Assembly: GCA_022771205.1 (NCBI GenBank)
Contig: JALFCF010000005.1
Span: 90,399-154,398 of the forward strand
DNA: 64,000 bases
DNA from: Mycoplasmatota bacterium
Lineage (GTDB): Bacteria; Bacillota_I; Bacilli_A; RF39; UBA660
Direction: 5' to 3'
Under the pieces are notes generated by a model that worked only from the letters and a program-made list of their open reading frames with translations, was not told where the DNA came from and ran no database searches. Position 1 is the stretch's first letter, and the number at the start of each line of letters is the position of its first letter. Positions 21,232 through 51,183 of this stretch are shown here, piece by piece. The translations under genes and the position numbers were made by a program.

Positions 21232-21510
21232 CTAGTCTTCATTTTCAGTTGGCTCTTCAGCTTTTTCATAAGCATCTAAAATTGCTTCTTCAAACATTGC
21301 TCTCACTTCTGGATTAATTGGATGAGCAACATCACGATAACCACCAGTAGCTGTCTTTCGGCTAGGCATAGCTATGAATAGTCCGTTGTCTCCATCAATG
21401 ATTCGAATATCATGTACTGCAAAACTATCATCTAATAATACAGAAGCAATACCCTTCATACGAGATCCTTCCTTATTAATTTTGCGTACATTTACAGATG
21501 TAATTTTCAT
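21232..21510 (-). CDS. spoVG: septation/sporulation regulator SpoVG
   Basis: MKITSVNVRKINKEGSRMKGIASVLLDDSFAVHDIRIIDGDNGLFIAMPSRK, a near-canonical SpoVG. Confidence 0.88.
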   Translation of the reverse strand: MKITSVNVRKINKEGSRMKGIASVLLDDSFAVHDIRIIDGDNGLFIAMPSRKTATGGYRDVAHPINPEVRAMFEEAILDAYEKAEEPTENED

Positions 21511-21604
21511 GTAATATTCCTCCCTCTTAAAGTATTACACTTTACACTTTAATTCTATAATAATTCCTAAAAAATTGCAATGATTTTTACACTTTAGAAA
21601 GAGT
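21511..21604 (-). promoter_or_regulatory. spoVG upstream region with sigma-A-like promoter and three copies of TAAAGTGTAA
   Basis: On the minus strand: TTGCAA, a 17-nt spacer, then TAGAAT. The 10-mer TTACACTTTA (plus-strand notation) occurs at 21535-44, 21542-51 and 21587-96. Confidence 0.3.
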
Positions 21605-21817
21605 TTAAGGTAAAATTTCTAAACTTTGAGTCAAAATATCACTATAACTAAATGTTTTTATTTTATTATTTTCAGTTTCAATAGTAAATATTGCTGGATA
21701 TAAATCAACAATCACACCATGAAATTCATCTACTTGATTTCGTGAACCATGAAAGCGAAAAGAGCACTTTATACCTTGATTTTGTTCTACAACTTTCTTT
21801 ATATTATCAATCATCAT
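21605..21817 (-). CDS. veg: Veg-family small protein
   Basis: FRFHGSRNQVDEFHGVIVDLYPAIFTIE...FSYSDILT resembles Veg. Confidence 0.65.
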   Translation of the reverse strand: MMIDNIKKVVEQNQGIKCSFRFHGSRNQVDEFHGVIVDLYPAIFTIETENNKIKTFSYSDILTQSLEILP

Positions 21818-22578
21818 CTTGGATACCCCACATACATAGTACCATTAGTGATAATTCCTCCCATTCCATCTTTACCATACTTTGTTTTTTCTAAGATGTG
21901 AATTAAATCTATGCTTTTATTTCTATCTGCTAATGCTAAAGAACAGGCTAAAATTGCTGGATCCAACGCATGAATATTAATTCTTTTAGGACTTGAAGCA
22001 AAATTAGCACCTGCTTTTATTAATTCTTCATAATTAGACTGACAAGCCCCCGCTATAATAATTAACTTATCTTGACTTTTTTCATATTTCCTAGCTTCTC
22101 TTACAGCTTCAATAAAATTCAAAGAGTTTTGATAATCTCCTCTATTTTTCTTTAAATAAGCATCATGACCAGTTATCACAACTATATCAGGCTGAAATTC
22201 ATCTAATAATCCATGAATTTTTCTAGGTATTTCTATCTCAGAAACAGTAAGACCATTAGCTTTTACGTTCATTTCCTTATAAAAATTCATACATCTTTTT
22301 AAATAATCACTATCCCCATCAATATGTAAAATCTTACCAGGTAAATAAAAATACTGACTCCTATCCATTTCTAAACTTCTTAAACTTTTTTCCACTATCT
22401 GTTTGTCAGAATCCAAAGAAACATTAGTCTTAACTAAATCAGATAACAAACTATCTGCATAAAGTCTTAAATCAGCACCTTTTAAAAATGCAATATTTCC
22501 ATCAATAGAAACTATTTTAAAAACGATATCATGATTATGAGAAATCCTTGTAACATAATCACCTTCATGAAAATCCAT
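21814..22578 (-). CDS. yabG: sporulation-specific protease YabG
   Basis: N-terminus MDFHEGDYVTRISHNHDIVFKIVSIDGNIAFLKG..LRLYADS is YabG-like. Located between ksgA and veg. Confidence 0.65.
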   Translation of the reverse strand: MDFHEGDYVTRISHNHDIVFKIVSIDGNIAFLKGADLRLYADSLLSDLVKTNVSLDSDKQIVEKSLRSLEMDRSQYFYLPGKILHIDGDSDYLKRCMNFYKEMNVKANGLTVSEIEIPRKIHGLLDEFQPDIVVITGHDAYLKKNRGDYQNSLNFIEAVREARKYEKSQDKLIIIAGACQSNYEELIKAGANFASSPKRINIHALDPAILACSLALADRNKSIDLIHILEKTKYGKDGMGGIITNGTMYVGYPR

Positions 22579-22623
22579 ACTATCATCTCCACTAGATTAT
22601 ATGCAAAAAAAAAAAGAAATATT

Positions 22624-23424
22624 CTAACCAGCTAACGCATTAGCAATAGCTACAAATATTTCAACAGATAATTGTTCAGCACGAACAGTTAAATCATAAT
22701 CATAATCTTGAAGTACTGAACGAATAATATTTAAATCGTATTTCTTTAAATTATTTCGCAAATTTTTTCTTTTAAATTGAAAACTATCTCTAACTACTTT
22801 AAAAAATAAATCTCTATCTTTTAAATTTAACACCACATCTTTTTTTGTAAAAGATATAACTACACTATCTACATTAGGTTCAGGAACAAACTCTTTTCTA
22901 GAAACCAAAAATTCCTTTTTAACATCATAAAAATAAGATAGAAAGACACTAATAGAACCATATTCTCTGCTTCCAGGAGAAGCACAAAATCTATTTCCTA
23001 CTTCTTTTTGAACCATCATACATATCTTTTTAAAATTTAAATTACTATTAACAATCTTCATAATAATAGGTGTAGTTATATAATAAGGAACATTACTAAT
23101 AAAATATAAATTACTATAAGAAAACCTAGATATATCATATTCCAAAGAACTATTTAAAAAATCTTGAAATAGTATATCAACGTTAGAAAATTCACTCAAT
23201 TTATTAGTTAACTCTACCTTCAAATCTTCATCTATTTCATAAGCTAGCACATGTCCTGCCCTTTTAGCAAGTTCCTGAGTTAAAATAGCACCACCAGGAC
23301 CAACTTCTATTACTAAATCATCCTTAGTTAAAGAACAAACATCAGCTATTCGTTCCACAACTACTTTTCGTTTTAAAAAATTTTGACCAAATTTTTTCTT
23401 AAATGTTACATCATAATGTTCCAT
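22624..23424 (-). CDS. rsmA: 16S rRNA (adenine1518/1519-N6)-dimethyltransferase
   Basis: KKKFGQNFL motif. Start set to ATG at 23424; the track start is a TTG. Confidence 0.85.
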   Translation of the reverse strand: MEHYDVTFKKKFGQNFLKRKVVVERIADVCSLTKDDLVIEVGPGGAILTQELAKRAGHVLAYEIDEDLKVELTNKLSEFSNVDILFQDFLNSSLEYDISRFSYSNLYFISNVPYYITTPIIMKIVNSNLNFKKICMMVQKEVGNRFCASPGSREYGSISVFLSYFYDVKKEFLVSRKEFVPEPNVDSVVISFTKKDVVLNLKDRDLFFKVVRDSFQFKRKNLRNNLKKYDLNIIRSVLQDYDYDLTVRAEQLSVEIFVAIANALAG

Positions 23425-23472
23425 AATATCACCACACAAAATATACCACAATAAAAAAAGAAAGACAATAAA

Positions 23473-24159
23473 TTAAATAATTTCAATGTCTTCGTCACTT
23501 AACAAGCTCTTTTTCAATTTTCTGATTTTGATTAATTTACGTACCCTAATTACTTCTGTCATAATTAAATATAAAACAGGTAAAGCAATACAAAGAATCC
23601 ATCCAAAATAAGTAGATAAAAACCATCTAACATAACCCAACTTTGGAATTCTAAATAAAACTTTCCCATAAACGTTTTCTTCTCTAACCAAAATAGCATC
23701 AGCAACATTATTGTTGTCACCTTTAGTACGATACAATAAAGTTCCATCATTAGCTTCCACTATACCTATAATTCGATGAGTAACAACTTTCCCAGCATAA
23801 TAGGAATCTGTAGATAAATAACTAATAATATCACCTTGTTTTAACTTTTTTGGTGAAACTCTAGCAATAATAATGGCATCTTGAACATTAATTGTAGGAA
23901 CCATACTTGGACTTACTATAACATACGCATCAAACAGAGGTGGTTTATTTTCCCCAGAACGTAGATTATATAATAAATCTACAAAATAGAAAATGAAAAA
24001 AAGAAAAATAAGGGCTAATAAAAGAAAAACAACATACAAAAACACTTTAGTTACAAAATGAAAAAAGAATTGTATGACTTCTTTTATAGAAACAACATCA
24101 TCATGATTTGTATCAAAATATTGTTTCATAATAAGCCTCCTATCTATCATTATCTCCAT
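23473..24159 (-). CDS. sipW: ER/archaeal-type signal peptidase I (S26B, SipW-like) with extra N- and C-terminal TM segments
   Basis: VSPSMVPTI catalytic Ser region and THRIIG...TKGDNNNVAD, a Sec11/SipW-type motif. C-terminal TM helix. Confidence 0.65.
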   Translation of the reverse strand: MEIMIDRRLIMKQYFDTNHDDVVSIKEVIQFFFHFVTKVFLYVVFLLLALIFLFFIFYFVDLLYNLRSGENKPPLFDAYVIVSPSMVPTINVQDAIIIARVSPKKLKQGDIISYLSTDSYYAGKVVTHRIIGIVEANDGTLLYRTKGDNNNVADAILVREENVYGKVLFRIPKLGYVRWFLSTYFGWILCIALPVLYLIMTEVIRVRKLIKIRKLKKSLLSDEDIEII

Positions 24160-24221
24160 GATAACACGTGAAAATCAAAAAAACTAGTTTTAAGCAGAAA
24201 AAAAAGAAGAGTTGACATCCT

Positions 24222-24845
24222 CTACATAGCTTTTGCTACAACATTCAATTTAATATTAAAATCACGACTAATAGAGTCAATTACAGTATCCTGAGCAACC
24301 CACATACGCAATCTAAAACTATCTTTTATTTCTTTATCATGACTTGTCATATTAGATAACGTTCCCGAATATAATATCATACTTCCCTTCTTGCTACCCA
24401 AAAAACTATTATTCTCTAACGGAATAAAAGGCTGTGGATTTTGAGTAATTAATGTAGATTTATATGCATTATCTTCGTACTTTTCCAAATAAAATCTTAC
24501 ATCAGAATTAGAAAGAGTCGGTTTATCAGTTTTAATTTTTTCTACATAAATTTCATAATTAAGCGTTGTTTGTGCAGAAAGCATAGATTGTACTTCAAAA
24601 TCATAGACATTATTATCATCTAACATCATTCCATCTACATCAGAAGCAGGCATAGCATTTTCCATAGATAAAGCACCGTTTTCATTTTTCAATTTTAAAG
24701 ATATAGTTCCAGTAGAAATACCATTTATTTGAGAATCTTCAAAAACTGTAACAAAAGTAGCATAAGATACACCAACAAATGCAATAATTAAAACAGCAAT
24801 GCTAATAATAGATAATAAGATTTGTTTTGACTCAGTTTGTATCAT
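24222..24845 (-). CDS. TasA/camelysin-like secreted protein with SipW-cognate signal peptide (paralog 1)
   Basis: Start ATG at 24845 behind GGAGG. After the signal peptide and SYA, TFVTVFEDSQINGISTGTISLKL matches the A-x-F-x-D-x-E-x-S...GTLDL SipW-cognate motif. C-terminal FRLRMW block. Confidence 0.55.
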   Translation of the reverse strand: MIQTESKQILLSIISIAVLIIAFVGVSYATFVTVFEDSQINGISTGTISLKLKNENGALSMENAMPASDVDGMMLDDNNVYDFEVQSMLSAQTTLNYEIYVEKIKTDKPTLSNSDVRFYLEKYEDNAYKSTLITQNPQPFIPLENNSFLGSKKGSMILYSGTLSNMTSHDKEIKDSFRLRMWVAQDTVIDSISRDFNIKLNVVAKAM

Positions 24846-24916
24846 AAAAAAGCCTCCATATACTCCATGTATATTATGATATATATCACTCAAAACATAA
24901 AAGACTTCAAAGAAGT

Positions 24917-25510
24917 CTAATTTGCTTGTCCAAACACTTTAACTTTAACAGAATAAACTCCAGAAGGATCTACTACAGCACCTTCTCTAATCCACATTCT
25001 CAATCTATAATTAACTACCTTTTCAGATGAAAGTGTTACTTTATCTACAACCATAGATTTAGCTGGACTACCTAAAGATGTCTTTTTCTTACTTGGCATA
25101 AAGATTTTGGGATCATCAACCTTAGCATAACTACCACTATTCTGTTTTTCTAAATAGATTACAACATCATTATCAGAAATAGTAGATTCTGAATCTTTGA
25201 TTAAAGCAATTTCGTATTGTACTGACGAATCTTCATCAAGTTGAGAAGAAACTGCAAAATCAAAATAACTACCTTCTGTTCGTAAAGCTTTACCAACTTC
25301 ATTAGACATAGGAGTCAAATTTGCAAGTTTAAAATCAGCAGTTGATGTTTTATAATTCATTGTAACAACACTATTTTTAATGACTTCATTAACATTATTC
25401 TTTTGATGTTTAAAAAACATTATAAACGAAAAAATAACAACTAAAATTAAAATTACACTAATCCCTAAAATTATAAATAAAATATTCTTTGTTTTATAAC
25501 TATTATCCAT
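24917..25510 (-). CDS. diverged TasA-like paralog 2 (N-terminal TM anchor)
   Basis: Shares the ...L-x-N-x-x-P/MS..VG, YEI, V-x-x-YLE and YRLRMW blocks with paralog 1. Follows it after a 23-nt gap. Confidence 0.45.
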   Translation of the reverse strand: MDNSYKTKNILFIILGISVILILVVIFSFIMFFKHQKNNVNEVIKNSVVTMNYKTSTADFKLANLTPMSNEVGKALRTEGSYFDFAVSSQLDEDSSVQYEIALIKDSESTISDNDVVIYLEKQNSGSYAKVDDPKIFMPSKKKTSLGSPAKSMVVDKVTLSSEKVVNYRLRMWIREGAVVDPSGVYSVKVKVFGQAN

Positions 25511-25518
25511 ATTTCCTC

Positions 25519-26121
25519 CTAATCCATTATTCGAACATAAAGATTTACTTTAAAATTACGTATTTCTGTAGTAATAGGATAAGTATCAGCCAACCACATA
25601 CGTAACCTAAAAGTTTTCACTTCATTCTCTTTTAACGTCCCTGAATAAATTTTTTTACCAGCAGGATTTGTTCTGGCAACTTTCAAATCATGATAAGTAG
25701 GAATTTTATCTCGATAATCATCGAATGGTAAATCATTATGACCATCTGTTAAATAAACTTTTACATAATCGCTAGGAAGTTCCAAAGAAACTCCAGTTTG
25801 AATAGCGTAAATTTCATAATCAATAGATTTCATCCCATCAAAATTAGCAGAAACAGTAAATTCACTATAACCATATTTTGTCTGATTAGGAGTAAAAGTT
25901 AACTGTTTACCAACAACATCTGTAATCGGCATAGAATTATCTACTACAAGATCAGATGAATTATCAGAATAAGACAAAATTAATGTTGCATTTTTAATAT
26001 CTTGCTTATTATTATAGAAATAAAGAAATAAGCAAAATATTAAAGAAAAAATAGCAATCAAAACTAAAACAACTGAAATAAAAAGTGTATTGTTATGAGT
26101 TAATTTTTTCAAATGTTTCAT
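25519..26121 (-). CDS. diverged TasA-like paralog 3 (N-terminal TM anchor)
   Basis: Shares the DNSMPITDVVG, YEIY, VKVYL and FRLRMW blocks with paralogs 1 and 2. Separated from paralog 2 by an 8-nt gap. Confidence 0.45.
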   Translation of the reverse strand: MKHLKKLTHNNTLFISVVLVLIAIFSLIFCLFLYFYNNKQDIKNATLILSYSDNSSDLVVDNSMPITDVVGKQLTFTPNQTKYGYSEFTVSANFDGMKSIDYEIYAIQTGVSLELPSDYVKVYLTDGHNDLPFDDYRDKIPTYHDLKVARTNPAGKKIYSGTLKENEVKTFRLRMWLADTYPITTEIRNFKVNLYVRIMD

Positions 26122-26177
26122 ATAGCAACCCCTATCTTATAGTATTAAGGATACACTATTTTGATAACTTTTTCAAC

Positions 26178-26930
26178 TTAATCTAAATTAAAAACTTTTT
26201 TAGCAGTAGAAGTAGTAATTTCAGCCACCTCAGAAACAGTGATTTTTTTTAGATTAGCAATTTCTAATGCAATAAGCGGAATATATTTAGAACTATTTTG
26301 TTTACCACGATAAGGTGTAGGTGTTAAATAAGGACTATCAGTTTCTAAAACAATATCATTTATAGAAATTTGCTCAACAACATTTTTTAAATTACTATTC
26401 TTAAACGTTACAACACCACCAATACCTAATACAAATCCCATTTTTATATACTCTCGTGCAGTTTCTAGACTACCACTAAAGCAATGAATAACTCCAGTAA
26501 CACGATATTTTTTTAAGCATTGAATGGTATCATAGGTAGCATCTCTACTATGAATAACAACTGGTAATTCATATTTTTCTGCTAATTTCAATTGCTTTTC
26601 AAATAATGACAATTGCTCACATCTTGATTCCTTTCCGTAATGATAATCCAATCCGATTTCACCTACACCAACAACCTTATCTGAATGCAATTGCTTTTCT
26701 AATAAATTAAGATCTTTATCTGATGTAATAGTTGATTCAGAAGGATGATACCCTATTGTTACATAAACATCAGAATATTTATTACTATATTCCAAAGACT
26801 CTACTATACTATTCCTAGTACATCCTGAAATAATAATAGGACTAACTCCTTCTTTTCTATCATCTTGCAAAACCTGTTCAATATCTTCATAATCTTCCTT
26901 TGATAAATGACAATGTGTATCTATAAACAT
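26178..26930 (-). CDS. tatD: TatD-family metal-dependent DNase/hydrolase
   Basis: MFIDTHCHL...GEIGLDYHY...HSRDA...HCFSG motifs. Start ATG at 26930 behind GGAGG. Confidence 0.8.
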   Translation of the reverse strand: MFIDTHCHLSKEDYEDIEQVLQDDRKEGVSPIIISGCTRNSIVESLEYSNKYSDVYVTIGYHPSESTITSDKDLNLLEKQLHSDKVVGVGEIGLDYHYGKESRCEQLSLFEKQLKLAEKYELPVVIHSRDATYDTIQCLKKYRVTGVIHCFSGSLETAREYIKMGFVLGIGGVVTFKNSNLKNVVEQISINDIVLETDSPYLTPTPYRGKQNSSKYIPLIALEIANLKKITVSEVAEITTSTAKKVFNLD

Positions 26931-26958
26931 AAAATACCTCCAAAATAAAAATATCACA

Positions 26959-27132
26959 TTAATGATATTTTTTCCACTGACAATATTTCATACTAAAAGA
27001 ATATATTAATATAAAAAACAAATAACAAATATCTAAAATATTTTTGGTAACACTTATGTAAATAATCATAAAAAAAGTTCCAATAAAGAATACCAAATTC
27101 ACTGTAAAAAACTGCATAACACTTTTTGACAT
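26959..27132 (-). CDS. possible 57-aa small hydrophobic protein
   Basis: ATG at 27132, 7 nt after AAGGA. MSKSVMQFFTVNLVFFIGTFFMIIYISVTKNILDICYLFFILIYSFSMKYCQWKKYH. Below the ORF-track length cutoff. No homology recognised. Confidence 0.25.
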   Translation of the reverse strand: MSKSVMQFFTVNLVFFIGTFFMIIYISVTKNILDICYLFFILIYSFSMKYCQWKKYH

Positions 27133-27227
27133 AATTTTATCCTTTCTTACAGCAACTTCCTTTTCACTATAACATAATTAAAAAAAGAAAAAAAACAATA
27201 TGTTCTTTTCTTTTTTTATTTGACAAA

Positions 27228-28769
27228 TTATTTTACATGTTCTTCGAAAAATTTATCACGATCTATTCTTTGAAATAATACACTAGGTGTATTTAAATGA
27301 TATTCATTAGAAGCGTTATATGAAGGAACAACATCTGAAATATTTAGTTGTTTTCTAATCTCGTTACTGGTACCTGGCATAAAAGGTTCTAAATAAAGTG
27401 AGCAAACTCTAATAGCTTCTAATAAATGATAAATAACATTTTGCAATCTTTTACTTTTATTTGCATCTTTAGCAAGTACCCATGGAGTAGTCTCATCAAT
27501 ATATTTATTAGTAAAACGTAATACATTAAATATTTCAGTAATAGCTTCACTAATTTGTAACATTTCCATCTTATTATCTACTAACTGTTCTAAATCTTTC
27601 AATTTGTTTTCTAATTCAAAATCAATTTCTTCAACTTCCTCAGAACTTTTTACTACTCCATCAAAATATTTATTACCCATAGAAATAGATCTTTGAACTA
27701 AATTTCCCAACACATTAGCCAATTCACCATTTATATGATCAATTAATAAATCATAAGTAATATTTCCATCACTTGAAAAAGGTATTTCATGAAGTAAATA
27801 ATAGCGAACAGCATCTACACCAAATAAATTGACTAATTCATCTGCATAAATAACATTTCCCTTTGATTTACTCATCTTATCATTGTTCATCAATAACCAC
27901 GGATGACCAAATATCTTTTTTGGAAGAGGTAAATTTAAAGACCATAAGAAACAAGGCCAATAAATTGAATGAAAACGAACAATATCTTTGCCAATAACTT
28001 GTAAATCTGCAGGCCATAATTTTTTAAATTGATCACTAACTTCATCAATATCATAACCGATATTAGTAATATAATTAGTAAGGGCATCTAACCACACATA
28101 AACAACATGATTAGAATCAAATTCAACAGGTATTCCCCATTTAAATGATGTTCGTGAAACACACAAATCCTGCAATCCTGGTTTAATAAAATTATTCAAC
28201 ATTTCATTCTTTCTTGCTTCTGGCTGAATAAAATCAGGATGAGTTTCAATATAATCTTCCAATTTTTTTTGATATTTACTTAATCTGAAGAAATAAGATT
28301 CTTCTTTTGCTTCTTTTACCTCTCTACCACAATCAGGACATTTTCCATCAATAAGCTGAGATTCAGTCCAAAAAGATTCACAGGGTGTACAATAAAGCCC
28401 AGTGTATTCACCTTTATAGATATCACCTTGATCATACATTTTCTTAAAAATATGTTGAACTATTTTTTTATGATGTGTATCAGTTGTTCTCACAAACTTA
28501 TCATAACTAGTATTCATTAAATCCCAAATACGTTTAACCTCAGCAGCTTGAATATCAACAAACTCTTGAGGACTAAGACCTGCATCACGAGCTTTATCTT
28601 CAATTTTTTGTCCATGTTCATCAGTACCAGTTTGAAAATAAACATCATATCCCTTAAATCTTTTATATCTAGCTATAGCATCAGCCAAAACAATTTCATA
28701 AGTATTTCCTATATGTGGTTTTCCAGATGTATAAGCTATCGCGGTTGTTAAATAAAACTTCTTATTCAT
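27228..28769 (-). CDS. metS: methionine--tRNA ligase (short form, no C-terminal tRNA-binding domain)
   Basis: HIGN (AYTSGKPHIGNTYE) and KMSKS motifs; zinc knuckle CPDCG. Confidence 0.92.
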   Translation of the reverse strand: MNKKFYLTTAIAYTSGKPHIGNTYEIVLADAIARYKRFKGYDVYFQTGTDEHGQKIEDKARDAGLSPQEFVDIQAAEVKRIWDLMNTSYDKFVRTTDTHHKKIVQHIFKKMYDQGDIYKGEYTGLYCTPCESFWTESQLIDGKCPDCGREVKEAKEESYFFRLSKYQKKLEDYIETHPDFIQPEARKNEMLNNFIKPGLQDLCVSRTSFKWGIPVEFDSNHVVYVWLDALTNYITNIGYDIDEVSDQFKKLWPADLQVIGKDIVRFHSIYWPCFLWSLNLPLPKKIFGHPWLLMNNDKMSKSKGNVIYADELVNLFGVDAVRYYLLHEIPFSSDGNITYDLLIDHINGELANVLGNLVQRSISMGNKYFDGVVKSSEEVEEIDFELENKLKDLEQLVDNKMEMLQISEAITEIFNVLRFTNKYIDETTPWVLAKDANKSKRLQNVIYHLLEAIRVCSLYLEPFMPGTSNEIRKQLNISDVVPSYNASNEYHLNTPSVLFQRIDRDKFFEEHVK

Positions 28770-28774
28770 AATAT

Positions 28775-29025
28775 CCCTCCTAAAAAAAAACTATTATAAA
28801 TATAAGGACGAAAACTCGCGGTACCACCTTATTTTATAATAGTAAATATTATACGCTTAAATAGTTAACGCCTATCTACGATTACACCTACATATCGATG
28901 CAATAGTTCAGAAGCCATATCATATAAAATGTTCATATCCATTTCCACCACCAGGACTCTCTATAACAAACATTGCTTATAAGACTCTTCCTCAAAACAA
29001 TCAATATGGCTAGAGTATAACACAA
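28775..29025 (-). promoter_or_regulatory. T-box riboswitch leader of metS
   Basis: Minus strand contains AAGGTGGTACCGCGAG (reverse complement of 28815..28830), which matches the T-box consensus AGGGUGGNACCGCG, about 45 nt upstream of the metS SD. The variable N is U, complementary to an A73 discriminator. Confidence 0.55.
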
Positions 29026-29031
29026 AACTAA

Positions 29032-29574
29032 TTATTCTTCAATATGTTTTCCTAAAAATTTAGAAACAACATCTGCCATTTTTTCTTCTACTTGACCAAC
29101 ATTTTGTTCTGAAATAATTAAAACTAATCCAATAGCATCGCCATTCATAATAACGGGAGAAATAATATAAGAATATTGTTCCATTTCAGAATCAAGAAAT
29201 TCAATATTATGTAGTTCCTTCTCAACAACTTTCACACGATCTTTCATAATAATTTCTAAAGATTTAGAAATAGGTTTACCTAAATACTTCTTTTTTAAAT
29301 TTCCGCTAGCTGCAATAAAATTATCACGATCAGTAATAAATACATTTTGCCCTATAACAGAATTAACAATATCTACTAACTGTTTAGAAATTTCATCCAT
29401 ATCTGTCATCTTAGAAAATTTCTTCAAAGCAATCATTTCTCTATCAACAAAAATTTCTAAAGACTCACCATCCCTGATTCTGAGAGTACGGCGAATTTCT
29501 TTTGGAATAACAATTCTTCCTAAATCATCTACTCTTCTAACTACACCTGTTGATTTCATATAATTATTCCTCAC
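29032..29574 (-). CDS. spoVT: stage V sporulation protein T-like regulator (AbrB-type N-domain + GAF-like)
   Basis: GVVRRVDDLGRIVIPKEIRRTLRIRDGESLEIF is the AbrB/SpoVT swapped-hairpin domain; a C-terminal domain of about 120 aa follows. Located downstream of mfd as in Bacillus. Confidence 0.7.
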   Translation of the reverse strand: MRNNYMKSTGVVRRVDDLGRIVIPKEIRRTLRIRDGESLEIFVDREMIALKKFSKMTDMDEISKQLVDIVNSVIGQNVFITDRDNFIAASGNLKKKYLGKPISKSLEIIMKDRVKVVEKELHNIEFLDSEMEQYSYIISPVIMNGDAIGLVLIISEQNVGQVEEKMADVVSKFLGKHIEE

Positions 29575-29728
29575 TTTCCCATACTACTATTATTTCTACT
29601 TTTTTTAAATTTATACCGCTTTTCATAATTTATTATAATCAATATTCCCAAAATTTCCCTTGGTAAATATTTCCATATAAAACAAAAGAAAAAAAAAGAA
29701 GACTTTTTGTTCGCCTTCTTCAATTATT

Positions 29729-30391
29729 TTATTTATCTTCATTTAACAAATAAGAATTCATCTTAGTAAATAAAAATCTTTCTCCTTGCTCTCGAACTCC
29801 ATTAATTAAAGTAGTATCTTTAACAATTACCTTAAAATCAATACTTTCTAAAAGCTGTTTCAAATAAGTAGAACTGACAAATTTTATCATTTCATTAGAG
29901 ATTGCACTAACATCTTTTTTTTCTATTTTTTTTGTAAATAAAAGATTTACATTTTTGACAATTTTTTTATCAATAACTTCACTAATATCCGCTTTCATAG
30001 TTTTCTTTAATTTGCGATTTAATGGAATAAAATCTTTTTTATTAAACTTAATAACATCACTTTCCTTCTTAGGAGAAAAAGAAATAATATTTTTTTGTAA
30101 TTCTTCTATCCTTATTTTCTTCCAAGAAGGAATATATGTAATAATTTTTTTCCTATAGTTTTCTAAAATTTTATCTAATGCATCAGCTTGAATTATTGTC
30201 CTATGACGTTTAGCTAATTCTAAAAATTTACATTTAATAATATCCATAGAATCAAGTGGAGGTTTTTTTAATAAAAATAAAACATCATCATCAAATAAAG
30301 AAATAGTATTATTTTTTAGTGTTTCTAAAACTGCATTTTTATAATTTTCAAAATGTTTTTGTTTAAAATCCTCAATTGTCTCTTGATTCAT
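29729..30391 (-). CDS. hypothetical Lys-rich cytoplasmic protein between mfd and spoVT
   Basis: 220-aa ORF with no TM or signal peptide and no recognisable motif. Confidence 0.45.
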   Translation of the reverse strand: MNQETIEDFKQKHFENYKNAVLETLKNNTISLFDDDVLFLLKKPPLDSMDIIKCKFLELAKRHRTIIQADALDKILENYRKKIITYIPSWKKIRIEELQKNIISFSPKKESDVIKFNKKDFIPLNRKLKKTMKADISEVIDKKIVKNVNLLFTKKIEKKDVSAISNEMIKFVSSTYLKQLLESIDFKVIVKDTTLINGVREQGERFLFTKMNSYLLNEDK

Positions 30392-41771: not shown

Positions 41772-44282
41772 CTATTTACTAATTTCGTTGGTTTGCGTAT
41801 TTTCTTCGTTTGAAATATTTTTTTCCACAGATGATTGTTCCTCGTTTTCACTGTTTTCTTCTGTATCATCTTCTTTATCCACAATAGCAACAGTAGAAAC
41901 CTTTTGATCATCTTTCAAATTAATCAATCTAATTCCTTGAGTTGCTCGTTTCAAAGTAGATACTTGTTCTAATGGTAATTTAATGATAACACCACTATCT
42001 GTCATAATCATTAAATCACTTTCATTCTCTGGATTAACGCATTTCAAAGCAACCATCATACCATTTTTATCTGTAATATTAAGTGCTTTAACTCCTTTGC
42101 TACCACGATGAGTTAAACGATACTCATCTATTTCTGATTTTTTACCATAACCATTCTCTGTAACAATCAAAATCAATTGATTTTGCTTAAGTACTTCAGC
42201 ACCAATAACCTTACTATCATCTAGTTCAATTCCTTTAACTCCTGAAGCAGTACGTCCCATTACGCGAACTTCATCCTCATTAAATCGAACCATTCTACCA
42301 TTATTAGATCCTATTGCAATCTCATCATTACCAGTAGTAACACCGACATAAATTAATTCGTCATCCTCTTTTAAAGTAATTGCAATTTTACCACTCTTAC
42401 GTATATTATCAAACTCAGATAATTCTGTACGCTTAATAATACCATTTTTAGTGACAAAAACTAAATACTTATGTTCTTCATTATCTGCAGATAAAGAAAT
42501 AATAGAACTAACATTTTCATCTTTTTCTAATTGTAATAAATTGATAATTGGTAATCCCTTAGATTGCCTACTAAATTCAGGAACTTCATAACCCTTCATT
42601 CTATAAATTCTACCCTTATTTGAGAAGAATAATATATAATCATGAGTCTTCATAGAAACCAATTGTTCCACAAAATCTTCTTCATTCGTAGCCATACCCT
42701 TAACACCTACACCACCACGGTTTTGAGTTTTATAAGTATCAGCCTTCAAACGCTTAATATAACCTTTATGAGTCAAAGTAACAATTATATCCTCAACAGG
42801 AATTAATGACTCGTCTTCAATATATTCTATAGCCGTCATATCAATGTTTGTACGACGTTCATCACCATATTTATTCTTAATTTCAGTCATCTCATCCTTA
42901 ATAATTTGTAATACTTTAGGTTCACTTGCCAAAATAGACTTCAATTCTTCAATTTCAGCAAGTAATTCTTGCAACTCATTCTCAATCTTATCTCTTTCTA
43001 ATCCCGTCAAACGACGTAATTTCATCTCTAAAATAGCTTGAGCTTGCGCTTCTGACAATTTGTAATTATTTCTAAGACCTAACATTGCCTCTTCATCATT
43101 TTTAGCAGACTTAATTAATTGAATAATATCATCTATGTGATCTAAAGCAATTTTCAATCCTTCTAAAATATGAGCTCTAGCCTCATCTTTTGCTAAATCA
43201 AACTTTGTACGACGAATAATTATTTCCTTTTGATAATCAATATATTTAGAAATAATATCCTTTAATCCCAATGTCTTTGGAACACCTTGGTCTAACATTA
43301 AGAAAATAATTCCATAATTTGTTTGAAACGCAGTATGCTTATATAAATTATTAAGCACAACTTGTGGATTAGCATCTTTTTTAAGAGTAATAGTAATTTT
43401 AATACCATCTTTTAAATCAGTATGATAATCAGTAATACCATCAATTACCTTATTATGAACAAGTTCAGCCACTTTATTTTTTAATTCTAATGTATTTATA
43501 CCATAAGGAACTTCATCAACGATAATATAATGTCTACCATTTTTCTCTTCTATTCTAGCCTTACTACGAATAGTTATACTTCCTCTACCTGTTTCATAAG
43601 CTTTCTTAATACCACTATTACCTAAAATAGTAGCCCCGGTTGGAAAATCAGGTCCCTTAATATACTGCATTAACCCATCCACATCAATATCTGGATTATC
43701 AATATAAGCAATACATCCATCAATAACTTCCTTCAAATTATGAGGAGGTATATTGGTAGCCATACCAACAGCTATCCCCATAGTTCCATTAACTAAAATA
43801 TTAGGAAATCTAGAAGGTAATATTTCAGGTTCCTTTTCAGATTCGTCAAAGTTAGAAATAAAATTAACAGTATCTTTATTAATATTTCTAAGTAATTCCA
43901 ATGATATTTTAGATAAACGAGACTCTGTATAACGCATTGCAGCAGCCCCATAACCTTCAATATTACCAAAATTACCATGACCATCAACTAACATATAACG
44001 ATAAGAAAAATCTTGTGCCATACGAACCATAGCTTCATATATACTAGAGTCACCATGAGGGTGATATTTTCCCATGACATCTCCAACTATTCTAGCGCTC
44101 TTCTTATGGGGTTTGTCAGGTGTATAACCTGATTCATACATCGAATACAAAATTCGTCTGTGAACAGGCTTTAAACCATCTCTAAGATCAGGTAAAGCAC
44201 GAGATACAATAACACTCATCGAATATTCAAGAAAAGAGTCCTTTACTTCATTAACTATATTATTCTGTTCCAATCTATCCAT
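41772..44282 (-). CDS. gyrA: DNA gyrase subunit A
   Basis: [24 protein letters not shown] and the active-site Tyr region. Acidic C-terminal tail. Confidence 0.95.
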
Positions 44283-44295
44283 CTTTTCCTACCTC

Positions 44296-46233
<1,938 letters not shown>

Positions 46234-47343
46234 CTACTTTCTCTCAACTTTACCATTTTTCACATTGTATATATAAGCATCCGTTAAATACTTTTTATTT
46301 ATATTTTTCAAATCAGTAGTTGTAATTACACTCTGAATACCTGTATGAATTAATTTTAAAAGTCGATTTCTCTTTTTTAAATCTAATTCACTAAATATAT
46401 CATCCAAAAGAAGGACAGGTTTAGTACTTAACATACTTTCGAATATAGGAATTTCTGACAATTTATAAGCAAGGACAGCAGTCTTTTGCTGACCTTGAGA
46501 CCCAAAAAACTTCAAATTTTTATCGGACAAGAAAAAAGAAAAATCATCCCTATGCGGTCCAACAAGTGTCATACCATAATTTAACTCTTTTTTATAATTC
46601 TTTTTATAGTAATGTTTCAAAGTTTTACGAATAGTTTCACCATCATAATCAGAAAATTCTATATTTGGTTCATATCTAACCAATAACCCGACTTCCCCAT
46701 TAATATCTTTATAATAAGTATTTATAGATTCATTAATTAAATCTAAGTATTCTTTGCGCTTCTGATAAATAAAAGTAGCTTTTTCGATTAATTTATCAGT
46801 AATAATATCCAAATAACTAGAATCAGCTATAGAATTTTGAAATAAAACTTTCAAATACTCATTTCTAGTTCTAAGCAATTTATTATACTCATTATAAATA
46901 TTTAAATAAATTTTAGAAATTTGCGAAAGCTGTATGTTTAATAGGTTGCGTCGTACATTTGGAGATCCTTTTATAATTTCCAAATCATCAGGTGAAAATA
47001 CAATAATATTCAAATTAGAAATATAATCAGCAACTTTGCGAATCTCTGTTTGGTTTACAAATAATTTTTTCTCATTATCAACTATTTCTACTTCTAATTT
47101 AGATATTATTTTTTCTTTCTGAATAACTCCTTTAATTTTTGCTTTCTTTTTATTGAACATAATAACATTAGGATGTACGCCTAAACGATGAGATTTAGTA
47201 AGTGCCAAAAAAGTTATTGCCTCTAAAATATTTGTCTTACCTTGCGCATTATCTCCTACAAATATGTTCATTCCCACACCTAATTTAATAGATAAAGTAG
47301 AATAATTTCTAAAATTTAATAAATTTAATTTAGTGATTTTCAA
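46234..47343 (-). CDS. recF: DNA replication and repair protein RecF
   Basis: Walker A GDNAQGKTN and ABC signature; position dnaN-x-recF-gyrB. Confidence 0.9.
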   Translation of the reverse strand: MKITKLNLLNFRNYSTLSIKLGVGMNIFVGDNAQGKTNILEAITFLALTKSHRLGVHPNVIMFNKKKAKIKGVIQKEKIISKLEVEIVDNEKKLFVNQTEIRKVADYISNLNIIVFSPDDLEIIKGSPNVRRNLLNIQLSQISKIYLNIYNEYNKLLRTRNEYLKVLFQNSIADSSYLDIITDKLIEKATFIYQKRKEYLDLINESINTYYKDINGEVGLLVRYEPNIEFSDYDGETIRKTLKHYYKKNYKKELNYGMTLVGPHRDDFSFFLSDKNLKFFGSQGQQKTAVLAYKLSEIPIFESMLSTKPVLLLDDIFSELDLKKRNRLLKLIHTGIQSVITTTDLKNINKKYLTDAYIYNVKNGKVERK

Positions 47344-47466
47344 TCAGACTTAAAAAAAAGACCCATATAATCACCTATCCCCTACTTCGGTATTCCTATA
47401 CATACATATATATTATAGCATAAAATAACCAAATAAGATAGGAAAAAGTGATTTTATAGATACTTT

Positions 47467-47916
47467 TTATAGGTTAGATTTTCTTTTTCTCATCATAAAA
47501 TCTAATCTAGACGCTCTAGATATTTGATTTTCTAAAGTTCGATAAGAAACTGGAACAATAATTTCTTTATTATTATCAAATATAACCTTAGTATTAACAC
47601 TATCTACCTTTTCAAAAAATTTAATTCTTTTTAAAGAAATCCAAATACAATCTTGAGACTTTGGAGAAGTAGTAGGAAAAACAATCAAATTATCTGTATC
47701 TTCTACAATTACAGGTACTTTATATTCAGCTCCTAATATTGATTTAGCACTATCTTTTCTTCCTTCATAAGTACTACCAAAATACTTACAACTATCTTCC
47801 ATTATTTCAAATGGACTCTGATTAACCAAAAAGCGATCTTCATCCTCATATACTAAGCTTTGATTAATTTCATTTGGCATAATTGCCAAAGTTCCTTTAT
47901 TAATTTCATATTCCAT
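47467..47916 (-). CDS. comK: ComK-family transcription factor homolog
   Basis: YEINKGTLAIMPNEI...SCKYFGSTYEGRKDSAKSILGAEYKVPVIVEDTDNLIVFPTTSPKSQDCIWISL...VSYRTLENQ. This parallels B. subtilis ComK (SYEVNGATIAVLP...SCRFFGSSYAGRKAGT...FLFPTLSS...QCGWIS...ISYNSFENQ). Start ATG at 47916 behind AGGAGGGGG. Confidence 0.6.
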   Translation of the reverse strand: MEYEINKGTLAIMPNEINQSLVYEDEDRFLVNQSPFEIMEDSCKYFGSTYEGRKDSAKSILGAEYKVPVIVEDTDNLIVFPTTSPKSQDCIWISLKRIKFFEKVDSVNTKVIFDNNKEIIVPVSYRTLENQISRASRLDFMMRKRKSNL

Positions 47917-48046
47917 AAAATTTCCCCCTCCTAAACATGAAATTGTCCCTAGAATACTAAATTCAATTGTCATATTTTGTCATTTTATAAAATTTGCTCA
48001 ATAAAATTATCAAAAATAAAAGAATCCACAATATTTGTGGATTCTT

Positions 48047-49174
48047 TTAATATGTACGAATAGGTAAAACTAATTGAGTTAAAGTTTCATCTTCACTAGA
48101 CTTAATTAATATTGGTTTAATTTCTCCAACAAAATGAATATCAACAGTTTCAGTGGAAAAACTCTTTAATGCTTCCATCATATATTTTGCACTAAATGAA
48201 ATTTTTATATCTTCACTATTATTTTTCAGTATAGGCATTTTTTCTTCTACTCGACCAATTTCTACAGAAGAACTTTTTAACACCAATATATCGCCCTTAG
48301 TTTCCAATGTAACGATGTTTTTCTCTTTATCACTAGTTAATATACTAACTCTATCAATCACGTCGTAGAAAGCATTTAAATTAGTACTAACAACTAAATA
48401 AGAATCATCTGGTAACAAATTAGATGTATTAGGATAAGTTCCATTAATTAAACGAGACTCAAATTTTAAATTACCAGTCTTAAATAAAATTTTATTATTA
48501 AAGATGTGTAATTCAATATCACCATCTTCATCATCAATAATTCTAGAAAATTCTAAAATATTATGACTAGGAATAACTATATTATAATTCTCTTCACTGG
48601 CACCATCTAATTTTATTACCTTTCTTGCTAAACGGTAAGAGTCAGTAGAATTACACTCTAATACATCCCCTACTATATTAAAGTTAATACCAGTTAAAAC
48701 AGGTTTACTTTCTTCATTAGAAGAAGCAAAAGCAGTTTGATTTACAATATCCTTAAAAACAGAAGCTTTAATATGAACTTTTTTCTTACTTTCTTCTAAA
48801 CCGATATTAGGATATTCACTTTCACTAATACCATTTAAATTAAATTCACTGTTTTCTGTGTAAATTAATATTTTTAATTCATCAATAACTTCTATATTAA
48901 TATATTTATCTGGTAACTTACGTACAATATCTAATATATACTTTCCCTGAATAATAATACTACCCTCTTGTTCAACTTTAAAATCCTCCTCATTGGTAGA
49001 TTCAATCATAGTTTGAATAGTAATATCATTATCACTAGCAGTTAAAGTTAACTTTTTCTTTTTTAGTTCAAACTTAATACCAGCTAAAACTGGAATAAGA
49101 TTTTTAGTTGAAATAGCCTTAGATACCTTATTAAGTGCATTTAATAATAAATCCTTTTTAATTGTTAATTTCAT
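48047..49174 (-). CDS. dnaN: DNA polymerase III beta sliding clamp
   Basis: Three-domain beta clamp; MKLTIKKDLLLNALNKVSKAIS. Confidence 0.9.
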   Translation of the reverse strand: MKLTIKKDLLLNALNKVSKAISTKNLIPVLAGIKFELKKKKLTLTASDNDITIQTMIESTNEEDFKVEQEGSIIIQGKYILDIVRKLPDKYINIEVIDELKILIYTENSEFNLNGISESEYPNIGLEESKKKVHIKASVFKDIVNQTAFASSNEESKPVLTGINFNIVGDVLECNSTDSYRLARKVIKLDGASEENYNIVIPSHNILEFSRIIDDEDGDIELHIFNNKILFKTGNLKFESRLINGTYPNTSNLLPDDSYLVVSTNLNAFYDVIDRVSILTSDKEKNIVTLETKGDILVLKSSSVEIGRVEEKMPILKNNSEDIKISFSAKYMMEALKSFSTETVDIHFVGEIKPILIKSSEDETLTQLVLPIRTY

Positions 49175-49306
49175 TTATATTCCTTCTTTCTTTTTTTGTT
49201 TTTATTATTATTACTGTGGAAAAAGTGAAAAACTATAATTTTAATAAGTTCTACAATGATTTTAACATATTTTATCTTGTGGAAAAAGAAAAGTTTTTCA
49301 TTTTTT
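49175..49306. promoter_or_regulatory. oriC part 2 (dnaA-dnaN spacer): DnaA boxes plus an AT-rich unwinding region
   Basis: TGTGGAAAA (= TTTTCCACA) at 49214-49224 and 49276-49287. T/A tracts at 49180-49210 and 49291-49306. Confidence 0.55.
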
Positions 49307-50695
49307 TTACACAACCCCTATATCTTTTTTTAATTTTTCAATGATATTTGCTAAATCTTTGTTAACTTTTATTTCTCTTTCAATCTTCTCGACAGAATGC
49401 ATTACTGTAGTATGATCTTTTCCACCAAATTCAGTACCAATTTTAGGGAATGACTCATTTGTCATAATTCTACAGAGGTACATTGCAATCTGACGTGGAA
49501 AAGAAATATTAGAACTTCTCTTCTTACTTCGAATATCTTCAACAGAAATCTGAAAGTATTCAGATACAATTTTTTGAATACGCTGAACGTCGTTCTTTTC
49601 CCCCATTCCTTTACTAATAAAGTCTTTTAGTGCTTCAATAGCTAAGTCTAAAGTAATTTCGGCACCTCCCATGATTGTAGAATATGCAATTAATCTAGTA
49701 ATAGATCCTTCTAATTGTCTAACATCAGTACCAATATTCGAAGCTATATATTCGACAACATCATCTGGAATTTCTGTTTCAAAGTTACCAGCGATAATCT
49801 TTTTCTTTAAAATTTCCGTTCGAAGAGTAAAATCTGGAGGGAAAATATTTACTGTTAATCCCCAACAAAATCGAGTACGAAGACGATCTTCAAGCAATTT
49901 TAAGTCATCAGGAGACCTATCAGAAGATATAATTATTTGTTTACTATCATTATATAAGCTATTAAATGTGTGAAAAAATTCCTGCTGTGTTTGTGTAGCT
50001 CCGCCTAGAAATTGAATATCATCAATAATTAATACATCAATGTTTCTATATTTATTTTTAAAGAAATCCACATAATTAAAATTTGTACCTTTATCATCTT
50101 TTTTGTTAATTCCAATAAAATCTTGAATAAATTGATCAGATGTAACATAAAGAACACGACGATTACTGTTTTCAGTAATATAATTTCCTATCGCATGCAT
50201 TAAATGAGTCTTACCTAATCCACTATTACCATAAATAAATAGTGGGTTGTACATATTTCCTGGATTTTCAGCAACAGATAATGCAGCAGCATGAGCAAAC
50301 TTGTTACTATTTCCTACAATAAAATTATCAAAAGTATATTTGCTCTTCAAATTTGATTGTGCTTGATTATGTGGAACTCCGAAGTTCTCATTATTATTTT
50401 GAATATCCCCCTGCTCTATTTCAATAGTTTTTTCTTCCTCTTCAACAATTTCTTCTTTCAGTAAGAACACTAATTCAAAATTAGTACCAGTAATATTATT
50501 TAAATGATTCAATATAAGATCTGAATAATTATCTGCTAAATGTTTCTTATGTATCGGCATTGGTACAATAATATAGGCTTTACCACCATCAAGTTTATGC
50601 AATTCAGTATCTTTAAACCAAGTATCAAAAGAAAGAGAGGTCAAATCGTCTTTAACTTCTGTTAGAAATTTAGACCACAAAATATCTACATTCAT
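49307..50695 (-). CDS. dnaA: chromosomal replication initiator DnaA
   Basis: AAA+ (GNSGLGKTHL), DnaA signature, C-terminal HTH. Start ATG at 50695 (MNVDILWSKF). The 39 upstream codons in the track read through the DnaA-box array. Confidence 0.95.
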   Translation of the reverse strand: MNVDILWSKFLTEVKDDLTSLSFDTWFKDTELHKLDGGKAYIIVPMPIHKKHLADNYSDLILNHLNNITGTNFELVFLLKEEIVEEEEKTIEIEQGDIQNNNENFGVPHNQAQSNLKSKYTFDNFIVGNSNKFAHAAALSVAENPGNMYNPLFIYGNSGLGKTHLMHAIGNYITENSNRRVLYVTSDQFIQDFIGINKKDDKGTNFNYVDFFKNKYRNIDVLIIDDIQFLGGATQTQQEFFHTFNSLYNDSKQIIISSDRSPDDLKLLEDRLRTRFCWGLTVNIFPPDFTLRTEILKKKIIAGNFETEIPDDVVEYIASNIGTDVRQLEGSITRLIAYSTIMGGAEITLDLAIEALKDFISKGMGEKNDVQRIQKIVSEYFQISVEDIRSKKRSSNISFPRQIAMYLCRIMTNESFPKIGTEFGGKDHTTVMHSVEKIEREIKVNKDLANIIEKLKKDIGVV

Positions 50696-50790
50696 TCGAC
50701 CATCTCCCCACAAGTAAAAATTATACCAATAGTTTAGCTCAAATTGTGAAAAAAAGAAAGAAAAAAACACAAAAAAAAAGAAATCACAAG

Positions 50791-50922
50791 CTATCCACAA
50801 AATATTCCACAAAAAAAGTTAAATAAAATAAAGATAAAAATAGCATTTCCACAGTTTCCACAGATTTTTTATAACAACCGTGTAAAACCAAATCCACAGC
50901 ACTGTGGATATTGTGGAAACAA
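50791..50922. promoter_or_regulatory. oriC part 1 (upstream of dnaA): cluster of about 7 DnaA boxes
   Basis: Both orientations are present: tATCCACAa, TTCCACAa, tTTCCACAg x2, aATCCACAg, TGTGGATAt and TGTGGAAAc, all within 130 bp. Confidence 0.65.
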
Positions 50923-50980: not shown

Positions 50981-51012
50981 AATGTAGATTTATGTCTGGA
51001 GGTGGAGAGAAG

Positions 51013-51135
51013 ATGAAAAGAACATATCAACCAAACAATCGTAAAAAATCAAAAAGATTAGGATTTTTCGCACGTAAGAAAACAAATATTTTAAATCGTC
51101 GTCGTCGCAAAGGACGTAAAAACCTTTGTAAATAA
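51013..51135 (+). CDS. rpmH: 50S ribosomal protein L34
   Basis: MKRTYQPNNRKKSKRLGFFARKKTNILNRRRRKGRKNLCK, a canonical L34 behind a GGTGGAGAGA SD. Below the ORF-track size cutoff. Confidence 0.92.
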   Translation: MKRTYQPNNRKKSKRLGFFARKKTNILNRRRRKGRKNLCK

Positions 51136-51183
51136 TTTACCGCTGCTAAAACAGTGGTTTTTTACTTATAAAGAGGTGATAAG

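Follow-up and report, generated by a model that had tools for sequence, protein, structure and literature searches.

A conserved cassette of an ER-type signal peptidase and three paralogous proteins in uncultured Bacilli, a candidate surface-fibre system

What could a signal peptidase gene and three genes for mutually related proteins be doing between the housekeeping genes tatD and ksgA? The question is raised by a stretch of 64,000 nucleotides, which we call the window, from a Mycoplasmatota bacterium (GenBank assembly GCA_022771205.1, contig JALFCF010000005.1, positions 90,399 to 154,398). Its minus strand carries, in order of transcription, par3, par2 and par1, encoding the three paralogs, and sipW, encoding the peptidase; we refer to these four genes as the cassette. 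The host comes from a lineage of the class Bacilli that is uncultured, low in GC and equipped with sporulation genes, and whose metagenome-assembled genomes (MAGs) are labelled Bacilli, Tenericutes or Mycoplasmatota. A first-pass annotation of this DNA had read the cassette as a TasA-like extracellular fibre or matrix module. A fibre or matrix function remains, in our view, its best reading, and we see a little better than an even chance that the cassette encodes a divergent, TasA-superfamily-like surface fibre that is processed by SipW and has built-in membrane anchors.

A peptidase and its three neighbours

The four genes are co-oriented and tightly spaced, as had been described, with gaps of 8, 23 and 62 nt between the longest open reading frames (ORFs) and of 8, 71 and 92 nt when the likely start codons are used. 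For par1 we place the start at ATG 24845 because of a GGAGG Shine-Dalgarno sequence 7 nt upstream and because the resulting product of 207 aa has the length found in all homologs. The likely peptidase start, ATG 24129, is preceded by AGGAGG and gives a product of 218 aa. The motifs quoted in the first-pass annotation (SPSMVPT, THRIIG, TKGDNNN, A-TFVTVFEDSQINGISTGTISLKL, YEI, YL and RLRMW) were all found.

Against TIGR02228, the archaeal/endoplasmic reticulum (ER)-type model, the peptidase scored 101.8 bits over residues 51-204 (cutoff 51.85), while it failed the bacterial-type model TIGR02227 (21.2 bits, cutoff 47) and fell below the threshold of Pfam S26 (16.3 versus 22.9). The nearest solved sequences in the PDB are the human SEC11C and SEC11A, with no bacterial LepB among them. 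Judged by these profiles, the enzyme is of the SipW/ER type (S26B) and not of the SipS type, in agreement with the original assignment. The Bacillus SipW equivalog model NF046067 aligned over peptidase residues 49-217 (model positions 10-177 of 189) with 86.6 bits against a cutoff of 190, a result that describes a homolog of Bacillus SipW over its full length but no equivalog. The motifs SPSM (Ser), THRI (His) and GDNN (Asp), which we take to hold the catalytic residues from what is established for S26B enzymes, are accompanied by an N-terminal transmembrane (TM) region and a C-terminal TM helix. These had been described as extra TM segments at both ends; given the span of the SipW model, they are the normal SipW layout.

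The three paralogs are truly related, as had been claimed. Pairwise BLASTP E-values of 4e-22 (par1/par2), 8e-12 (par1/par3) and 2e-17 (par2/par3) lie far beyond chance, with 27-32% identity over nearly the full length, and a hidden Markov model of the family matched par2 at E 3.9e-62 and par3 at E 3e-52. It is at the N-terminus that they part. The signal peptide of par1 reads ...IIAFVGVSYA↓TFVTVFEDSQINGISTGTISLKL... (the arrow marks the predicted cleavage site) and is followed by a jelly-roll domain; among the three window paralogs, the canonical small-x-small site followed by xF (SYA↓xF) occurs only in par1. The window's par2 has no S/T-x-A site, and a few par2 orthologs show SLA↓F. In par3, a K-rich N-terminus leads into one TM helix without a small-x-small site and then into a jelly-roll domain of ~160 aa. 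The N-terminal segment of par1 is absent from par3, and the par3 orthologs, which retain the uncleavable helix, are short by ~10 residues exactly at the segment that we discuss below as a putative strand donor.

With a TM helix kept and no cleavage site, par2 and par3 do retain the uncleaved-looking N-terminal anchor that the first-pass annotation had noted, and the basic N-termini of par2/par3-type proteins predict an N-in, domain-out orientation. The likening of these two proteins to TapA serves less well, since SipW also cleaves TapA, which is presumed to supply the first strand (PMC9674648). By analogy, TafF1 and TafF2 of the haloarchaeal Tafi pili would be better counterparts (PMC12337348).

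A Cys lies inside the TM helix (...F/G-C-L-F/L-L-Y-F...) of 9 of 11 par3 orthologs. We considered and set aside the idea that par3 is a lipoprotein: the Cys is within the helix, and lipidation is doubtful because a lipobox-like context (F-T/S/I-G-C) is restricted to some species.

How far the likeness to TasA goes

A first structural model of par1 that included the signal peptide reached a pLDDT of 79. The mature protein, modelled from a 103-sequence alignment, reached a pLDDT of 90 and a pTM of 0.85 and forms a beta-sandwich of about ten strands. Only its first 13 residues, which are conserved, fall below pLDDT 50, and in this monomer model they are disordered. In TasA, the strand that is donated (residues 28-38) follows directly after the SipW cut (PMC9674648).

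We compared the family alignment (A4) by HHalign with a 36-member TasA/CalY alignment (A5) and with a single TasA sequence. The former comparison aligned 61 columns at E 1.7e-4 with a probability of 49%; these comprise the signal peptide, the cleavage site (SYA↓AF versus TWA↓AF), an N-x-(I/F)-x-x-G-T-(I/L)-x-(M/L) strand and N-(A/L)-x-P, the matching TasA-family pattern being WA↓AFND...N-x-F-x-x-G-T-L-D-L...N-L-K-P. With the single TasA sequence, too, only the N-terminal ~60 columns aligned. The signal peptide is strongly conserved in par1-type proteins, and equally so in the TasA family. At the level of sequence, then, the link between the two families is carried mostly by the signal peptide, together with a short motif at the mature N-terminus.

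A number of results weigh against a TasA-type fibre and are best considered together. When both signal peptides were trimmed, HHalign retained 30 columns at E 0.11 and a probability of 0.5%, non-significant in local and global mode alike; because of this we do not claim homology of the mature domains. PF12389 (Peptidase_M73) did not match par1, par2 or par3 at E ≤ 1, and the three proteins gave no TIGR04088 match and only noise in Pfam and NCBIfam scans. Nor was PF12389 among the families matched by 101 diverse family members, of which six showed TIGR04088 below threshold (E 0.07-1) and three showed the TasA equivalog NF046066 below any cutoff (best E 0.0013). In a control search with Bacillus subtilis TasA, the homologs all carried PF12389. 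A search of the family profile against PDB sequences returned no TasA-superfamily structure at E ≤ 10. The fold matches of par1 are to generic beta-sandwiches with Z-scores almost equal to that of TasA, and Foldseek against the PDB listed lectins, carbohydrate-binding modules, FimG and a viral jelly roll, with TasA absent from the top 50. In addition, the peptidase may be a general rather than a dedicated enzyme.

The assignment of the paralogs to the TasA/camelysin family in the first-pass annotation is therefore not upheld by the profiles, PF12389 and TIGR04088 lacking significant matches. The SipW-cognate motif that it had placed behind the par1 signal peptide survives in part, as a cleavage site followed by xF but without a TIGR04088 match; likewise, the jelly-roll expected of par1 is present as a beta-sandwich, but one whose structural relatives are generic. 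TasA-superfamily membership could not be shown by sequence. The M73 family of InterPro, however, takes in only 632 of 2,172 BsaA-like proteins (PMC11580942), and because most BsaA-like proteins thus fall outside M73, a protein that fails this model may still belong to the superfamily.

We also considered an N-E-K isopeptide triad like that of BsaA but do not claim it for the window's par1: the N is in place at +12, whereas the consensus residues E (+25) and K (of the GK motif) are both lacking.

Conservation, long relatives and transcription signals

To place the cassette in its lineage we scanned related loci, one genome per species, which returned 39 loci. We denote as C a paralog with an S/T-Y/F-A cleavage site and as a one with an uncleavable helix. 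After correction of these classes, 22 of the 39 loci show the arrangement tatD - a - a - C - sipW - ksgA - yabG - veg - spoVG, so relatives do carry the cassette between tatD and ksgA, a point that the first-pass annotation had proposed to settle by comparative genomics. The window has paralogs next to a TIGR02228-type peptidase, and so do 30 related loci, some taken from species genomes and others from metagenome contigs. Each complete SipW-linked locus that we examined has one or more a-type paralogs, and all of these loci, or all but one, have a C-type paralog too. The close homologs of the par genes come only from metagenome assemblies or MAGs, labelled Mycoplasmatota bacterium or Candidatus Faecimonas, and carry no Pfam domain.

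A distant clade (L024, L026 and L042) has a different arrangement, tatD - C-C-C-(C) - sipW - a - two conserved membrane proteins - ksgA. In the first two of these loci a YabE-like gene with a 3D domain lies between tatD and the paralogs. The cassette site is the yabE/rnmV position of the Bacillus map, as the first-pass annotation had stated, and the two relatives that keep a YabE-like gene beside the cassette agree with it: the 3D-domain gene marks the ancestral yabE position, and the lineage of the window has lost it from the site. The lineage has thus had the cassette for long and passed it on vertically, which sets it apart from a recent insertion, and with GC at ~22-33% across the window it shows no compositional break.

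Two membrane proteins of about 229 aa and about 140-180 aa, without a Pfam match, follow sipW in the distant relatives. They may be further assembly components; a search for their homologs in the 64-kb window found none. At another locus, L038, from a rabbit-gut MAG, the tatD-adjacent cassette stops after one and a half paralogs and gives way to unrelated genes and to an ORF whose N-terminus is, by eye, reminiscent of DNA cytosine methyltransferases. This suggests an insertion or rearrangement at the cassette site.

An exhaustive profile search of 1.84 billion representatives (clusters at 50% identity) revealed that the paralogs belong to a large family: 4,849 members at E ≤ 1e-3, 2,167 at E ≤ 1e-10 and 327 at E ≤ 1e-30. 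All organism labels seen were of uncultured Bacilli, Tenericutes or Mycoplasmatota MAGs, and no Pfam or NCBIfam family matched this domain in any member scanned. Among the top 147 representatives, 118 carry the motif G-(V/I)-(S/T)-(Y/F)-A ↓ (A/V/I)-F-(T/S/N)-(Y/F)-(S/T)-K-x-G-x3-N-x-I-x-T-G-T-I-x-M-x-Y-x-E, with F at +2 conserved in 84%, G at +8 in 86% and N at +12 in 92%.

Many relatives are longer than the window paralogs. Of the top 147 representatives, 46 exceed 320 aa, with the domain at the N-terminus and, in 45 of the 46, the cleavable motif. Ten long proteins were scanned against Pfam; their passengers were Big_2, Flg_new/InlB B-repeats, BspA-type leucine-rich repeats (LRR_5) and, weakly, DUF6273, and four had no match. 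In the genomes, the long members are single and scattered, away from sipW. We sought a C-terminal TM or hydrophobic anchor or an LPXTG-like motif in all 46 and found none. With no second anchor to hold them, the long members would be fully released upon cleavage. They would need a means of retention, which insertion into a fibre system would supply.

The cassette appears to have transcription signals of its own. At the stop codon of tatD, a consensus scan found a promoter-like site, TTGAAA-17-TATCCT, with a score of 9/12. Its boxes, TTG(A/C)AA and ...TAGTGTAT(T/C)CT, are kept in all 18 close orthologous loci listed, and the surrounding context ...AAAATAGTGTAT(T/C)CT... is conserved in the same 18; distant loci have a TTGAC/TTGAA-type box followed by a TAnnCT-type box at the same place. 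The site looks sigma-A-like and unlike a sporulation sigma site. Judged from this conserved site, the cassette looks like its own transcription unit. The first-pass annotation had embedded it in a tatD-ksgA housekeeping operon; the position between tatD and ksgA stands, but the cassette is apparently not simply a part of such an operon.

Downstream of par1, a hairpin (AGAGGA-TGTCAAC-TCTTCT) with a U-run starts inside the par1 stop codon, ahead of sipW. In the window and in 28 of 31 loci, a hairpin and T-run are found no more than about 15 nt from the stop codon of the paralog that immediately precedes sipW. RNAalifold found compensatory changes in all five consensus pairs, and all 25 of the 25 sequences (window positions 24205-24223 and 24 loci) share the loop core TGT(A/C)AA without variation. 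Since the stems are weak, at -3 to -7 kcal/mol, termination is probably partial, and we read the hairpin as a putative attenuator that would keep the message for the major subunit above read-through into sipW-ksgA. An invariant loop is more constraint than a plain terminator needs, and it may be a protein-binding or RNA-processing signal. A terminator scan of positions 21500-29800 returned a single terminator-like site, a weak hairpin with a T-run in the gap between par2 and par1.

By Pfam, the genes flanking the cassette encode TatD_DNase, RrnaAD (KsgA), YabG (peptidase U57), Veg, SpoVG, SpoVT and MetG. The veg gene, named biofilm formation stimulator VEG in Pfam, lies two genes downstream of the cassette; its proximity to a TasA-like module is probably coincidental, because ksgA-yabG-veg is the usual order in Bacilli. 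Upstream, a T-box leader (RF00230) precedes metG with 101.4 bits, which exceeds the gathering score, so that the metG-tatD unit would be under tRNA-sensing control; this unit ends at the point where the promoter-like site of the cassette begins. A hydrophobic ORF of 57 aa without a Pfam match sits between metG and tatD, and a called gene of the same length occupies the same place in a distant relative. Another ORF, of 220 aa and with no Pfam match, lies between mfd and spoVT, where more than 20 related loci have it as well. The region of the window is origin-proximal, with dnaA, dnaN, gyrB, gyrA, mfd and ftsH. The coding strand flips near 51 kb (about 51000-51500), and the window probably contains the origin of replication, at a distance of ~25 kb from the cassette. 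The coordinates are collected in Table 1.

Table 1 Features of the cassette, its surroundings and related loci (window positions unless a related locus, L, is given)
Feature	Position	Strand	Description
par3	25519-26121	-	ORF of 200 aa; anchor-type paralog
par2	24917-25510	-	ORF of 197 aa; anchor-type paralog; TM helix and jelly-roll domain
par1	longest ORF 24222-24893 (TTG 24893; 223 aa); likely 24222-24845 (207 aa)	-	cleavable C-type paralog; putative major subunit
SipW-type signal peptidase I	ORF 23473-24159 (228 aa); likely start ATG 24129 (218 aa)	-	
Promoter-like site TTGAAA-17-TATCCT	26148-26176	-	overlaps tatD stop codon, upstream of par3
Weak hairpin and T-run	24902-24918	-	overlaps par2 stop codon, par2-par1 gap; terminator scan
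Hairpin AGAGGA-TGTCAAC-TCTTCT and U-run	24197-24223	-	starts inside par1 stop codon; putative attenuator before sipW
veg	21605-21817	-	two genes downstream of the cassette
57-aa hydrophobic ORF	26959-27132	-	between metG and tatD
T-box leader RF00230	28801-29004	-	upstream of metG
220-aa ORF	29729-30391	-	between mfd and spoVT
dnaA, dnaN, gyrB, gyrA	41772-50812	-	
Called gene of the same length as the 57-aa ORF	L042 6148-6321		same place in a distant relative
YabE-like protein, 206 aa	L024 4362-4982; L026 3075-3695		between tatD and the paralogs
Two membrane proteins after sipW	L022 7336-8440; L024 9107-10253; L026 7819-8965; L040 2376-3613; L042 10828-11996		
Truncated cassette and following genes	L038 5935-7908		rabbit-gut MAG

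A reading of the cassette and its counterparts

In the mechanism that we propose, all three paralogs would be exported in an N-in/C-out orientation by way of their hydrophobic N-terminal segment. The adjacent ER-type peptidase would cut par1 after ...GVSYA and free the conserved segment of ~13 residues, which would then serve as a donor strand and fill in the neighbouring subunit's jelly roll, in the manner of TasA and BsaA, so that par1 polymerises. As par2 and par3 have no cleavage site and no free N-terminal segment, they could accept a strand but not donate one; with the same jelly roll, they would stay in the membrane and act as a cell-proximal anchor or fibre terminator. Family members that carry Big_2, Flg_new, LRR_5 or DUF6273 behind the same cleavable N-terminal domain would plug in as adhesive subunits. 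Transcription would proceed from the promoter-like site at the tatD stop, and the hairpin and U-run after par1 would lower read-through into sipW-ksgA. Of this scheme, the gene order and synteny, the paralogy, the peptidase type, the fold class, the conservation of the motifs and the covariation in the hairpin are observed; cleavage, strand donation, polymerisation, anchoring and regulation are inferred.

Several published observations bear on this scheme. TasA-superfamily fibres are typically encoded beside a TIGR02228-type peptidase (bioRxiv 10.64898/2026.01.04.697558). In the model for BsaA, the fibre grows on membrane-tethered precursors that SipW then cleaves (PMC11580942), and at Tafi loci, proteins made of a single TM helix and a jelly roll are proposed as anchors (PMC12337348). 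We tentatively suggest a broader role, possible but one we would not bet on, in which the family is the polymerisation and attachment module of a sortase-independent surface display in uncultured gut Bacilli: a strand exposed by SipW would enter par2, par3 or other subunits, the short subunit would build the fibre, and dozens of adhesins would plug into it. The product would be a TasA-type pilus whose membrane anchors are built in and whose adhesive subunits are interchangeable.

A simpler account holds that the domain is a non-polymerising N-terminal stalk or anchor module, that the paralogs are monomeric and either secreted or tethered, and that the ER-type peptidase is a general enzyme, perhaps the only one of type I. 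It would explain why the domain heads so many long Big_2, LRR and Flg_new proteins scattered without a nearby sipW, and it sits easily with the TM helices retained by par2 and par3, the generic beta-sandwich matches at Z-scores close to that of TasA, the lack of a significant TasA link outside the signal peptide, and the place of the cassette among translation and housekeeping genes. However, par1 consists of the domain only, is apparently cleaved, is the most conserved of the three and has a putative attenuator of its own, and a stalk with nothing attached to it has no obvious role. Cleaved long members, without another anchor, would moreover be released entirely, an interaction is suggested by the fact that, even in distant clades, SipW is strictly accompanied by both cleavable and uncleavable paralogs, and a conserved N-terminal 13-mer that escapes modelling fits a segment that folds only in trans. 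Overall, we consider this account unlikely, though it deserves to be taken seriously.

Two further accounts start from other features of the locus. The paralogs could be spore-associated coat or appendage proteins, possibly TasA-like but expressed during sporulation, a view that is compatible with the fibre reading and that recalls the first description of TasA as the spore-coat-associated protein CotN. Many TasA homologs are named spore coat-associated protein N in the sources, and yabG, spoVG and spoVT lie nearby, as do ORFs called yabP and yabQ by gene order only. Yet this neighbourhood is the conserved origin-proximal synteny of Bacilli, the promoter-like site has the sigma-A-like character described above, and the adhesin-type passengers point to cell-surface adhesion; we give a sporulation role only a small chance. 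Very improbable, in our judgement, is that the proteins are subunits like type IV pilins, whose filament core would be made of the retained hydrophobic N-terminal helices. In favour of this, conservation of the h-region is unusually high throughout the family, the only PDB sequence matches are archaeal type IV pilins (E 0.18 and 0.97), and Pilin_N appears in 3 of the 101 members at E ≥ 0.051. All of these matches are non-significant, though, and run through the TM helix, no N-terminus has a prepilin-peptidase motif (G↓F..E or K/R-G↓hydrophobic), and the locus has no PilD, PilB or PilC gene but a peptidase of type I. The conservation of the helix is matched by that of the TasA-family signal peptide, and we rejected the pilin assignment.

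If the SipW-processed fibre reading is right and the family is a divergent TasA/BsaA branch, a large block of hypothetical surface proteins of the gut microbiome would gain a testable function. The division between a cleavable subunit and anchored paralogs bears on how TasA-type fibres start, how they are oriented and how they stay on the cell. Adhesin passengers on the same N-terminal module suggest a sortase-free route of display, which would be relevant to host colonisation by reduced-genome Bacilli. If true, sortase-independent display would explain large surface proteins in lineages reported to have no sortases (PMC10868615). New here are the conserved a-a-C-SipW arrangement, the split into cleavable and anchored types, the scale of the family with its adhesin fusions, and the conserved promoter-like site with the covarying hairpin.

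Among known systems, the tapA-sipW-tasA operon of B. subtilis likewise encodes an ER-type SipW beside its substrates, and TasA shares with par1 a conserved signal peptide that ends in small-x-A, followed by AF and N-x-hydrophobic-x-x-G-T-hydrophobic. The N-terminal segment of par1 is also in the position of the TasA donor strand (PMC9674648). Unlike TasA, the window subunits gave no match to PF12389 or TIGR04088, and their mature domain is ~60 residues shorter and without detectable similarity. TapA is a cleaved strand donor, whereas the accessory proteins of the window are full paralogs with an uncleaved TM helix. The order, too, is different, being a-a-C-SipW at a site fixed between tatD and ksgA, and family members here are fused to adhesin passengers.

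The sipW-bsaA-bsaB-bsaC(-RSD) locus of Clostridium perfringens resembles the cassette in combining SipW with more than one remote TasA-like paralog (PMC7395162, PMC11580942), and in having a terminator with read-through after the gene for the major subunit, bsaA (PMC7395162). In the BsaA model, the growing oligomer passes its strand to a subunit that the signal peptide still tethers, and the SipW cut comes afterwards (PMC11580942), much as we propose; the oligomers are membrane-associated and have no LPXTG (PMC7395162, PMC11580942). In contrast, sipW comes first there and last here, paralogs that would be permanently anchored are found here, and the window locus has neither a vWA protein nor a two-component system.

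The Tafi pili of haloarchaea (pilin TafE, peptidase TafD, anchors TafF1/TafF2 and a tip protein) also have a pilin, here of the TasA superfamily, and a signal peptidase encoded together, and a larger tip or adhesin protein is present (PMC12337348). They belong to another domain of life, many haloarchaea use Tat export, and the putative anchors of the window differ in being clear paralogs of the putative pilin, at 27-32% identity. As a functional analogy only, sortase pili combine a major subunit, a basal anchor with which growth stops and adhesive subunits built on the same polymerisation module, and in them, as in the scheme proposed here, a peptidase of the membrane is dedicated to processing a precursor that is tethered there. 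The window locus has no LPXTG, sortase or Cna-type fold, and its subunits would be linked by non-covalent strand insertion rather than by an isopeptide bond.

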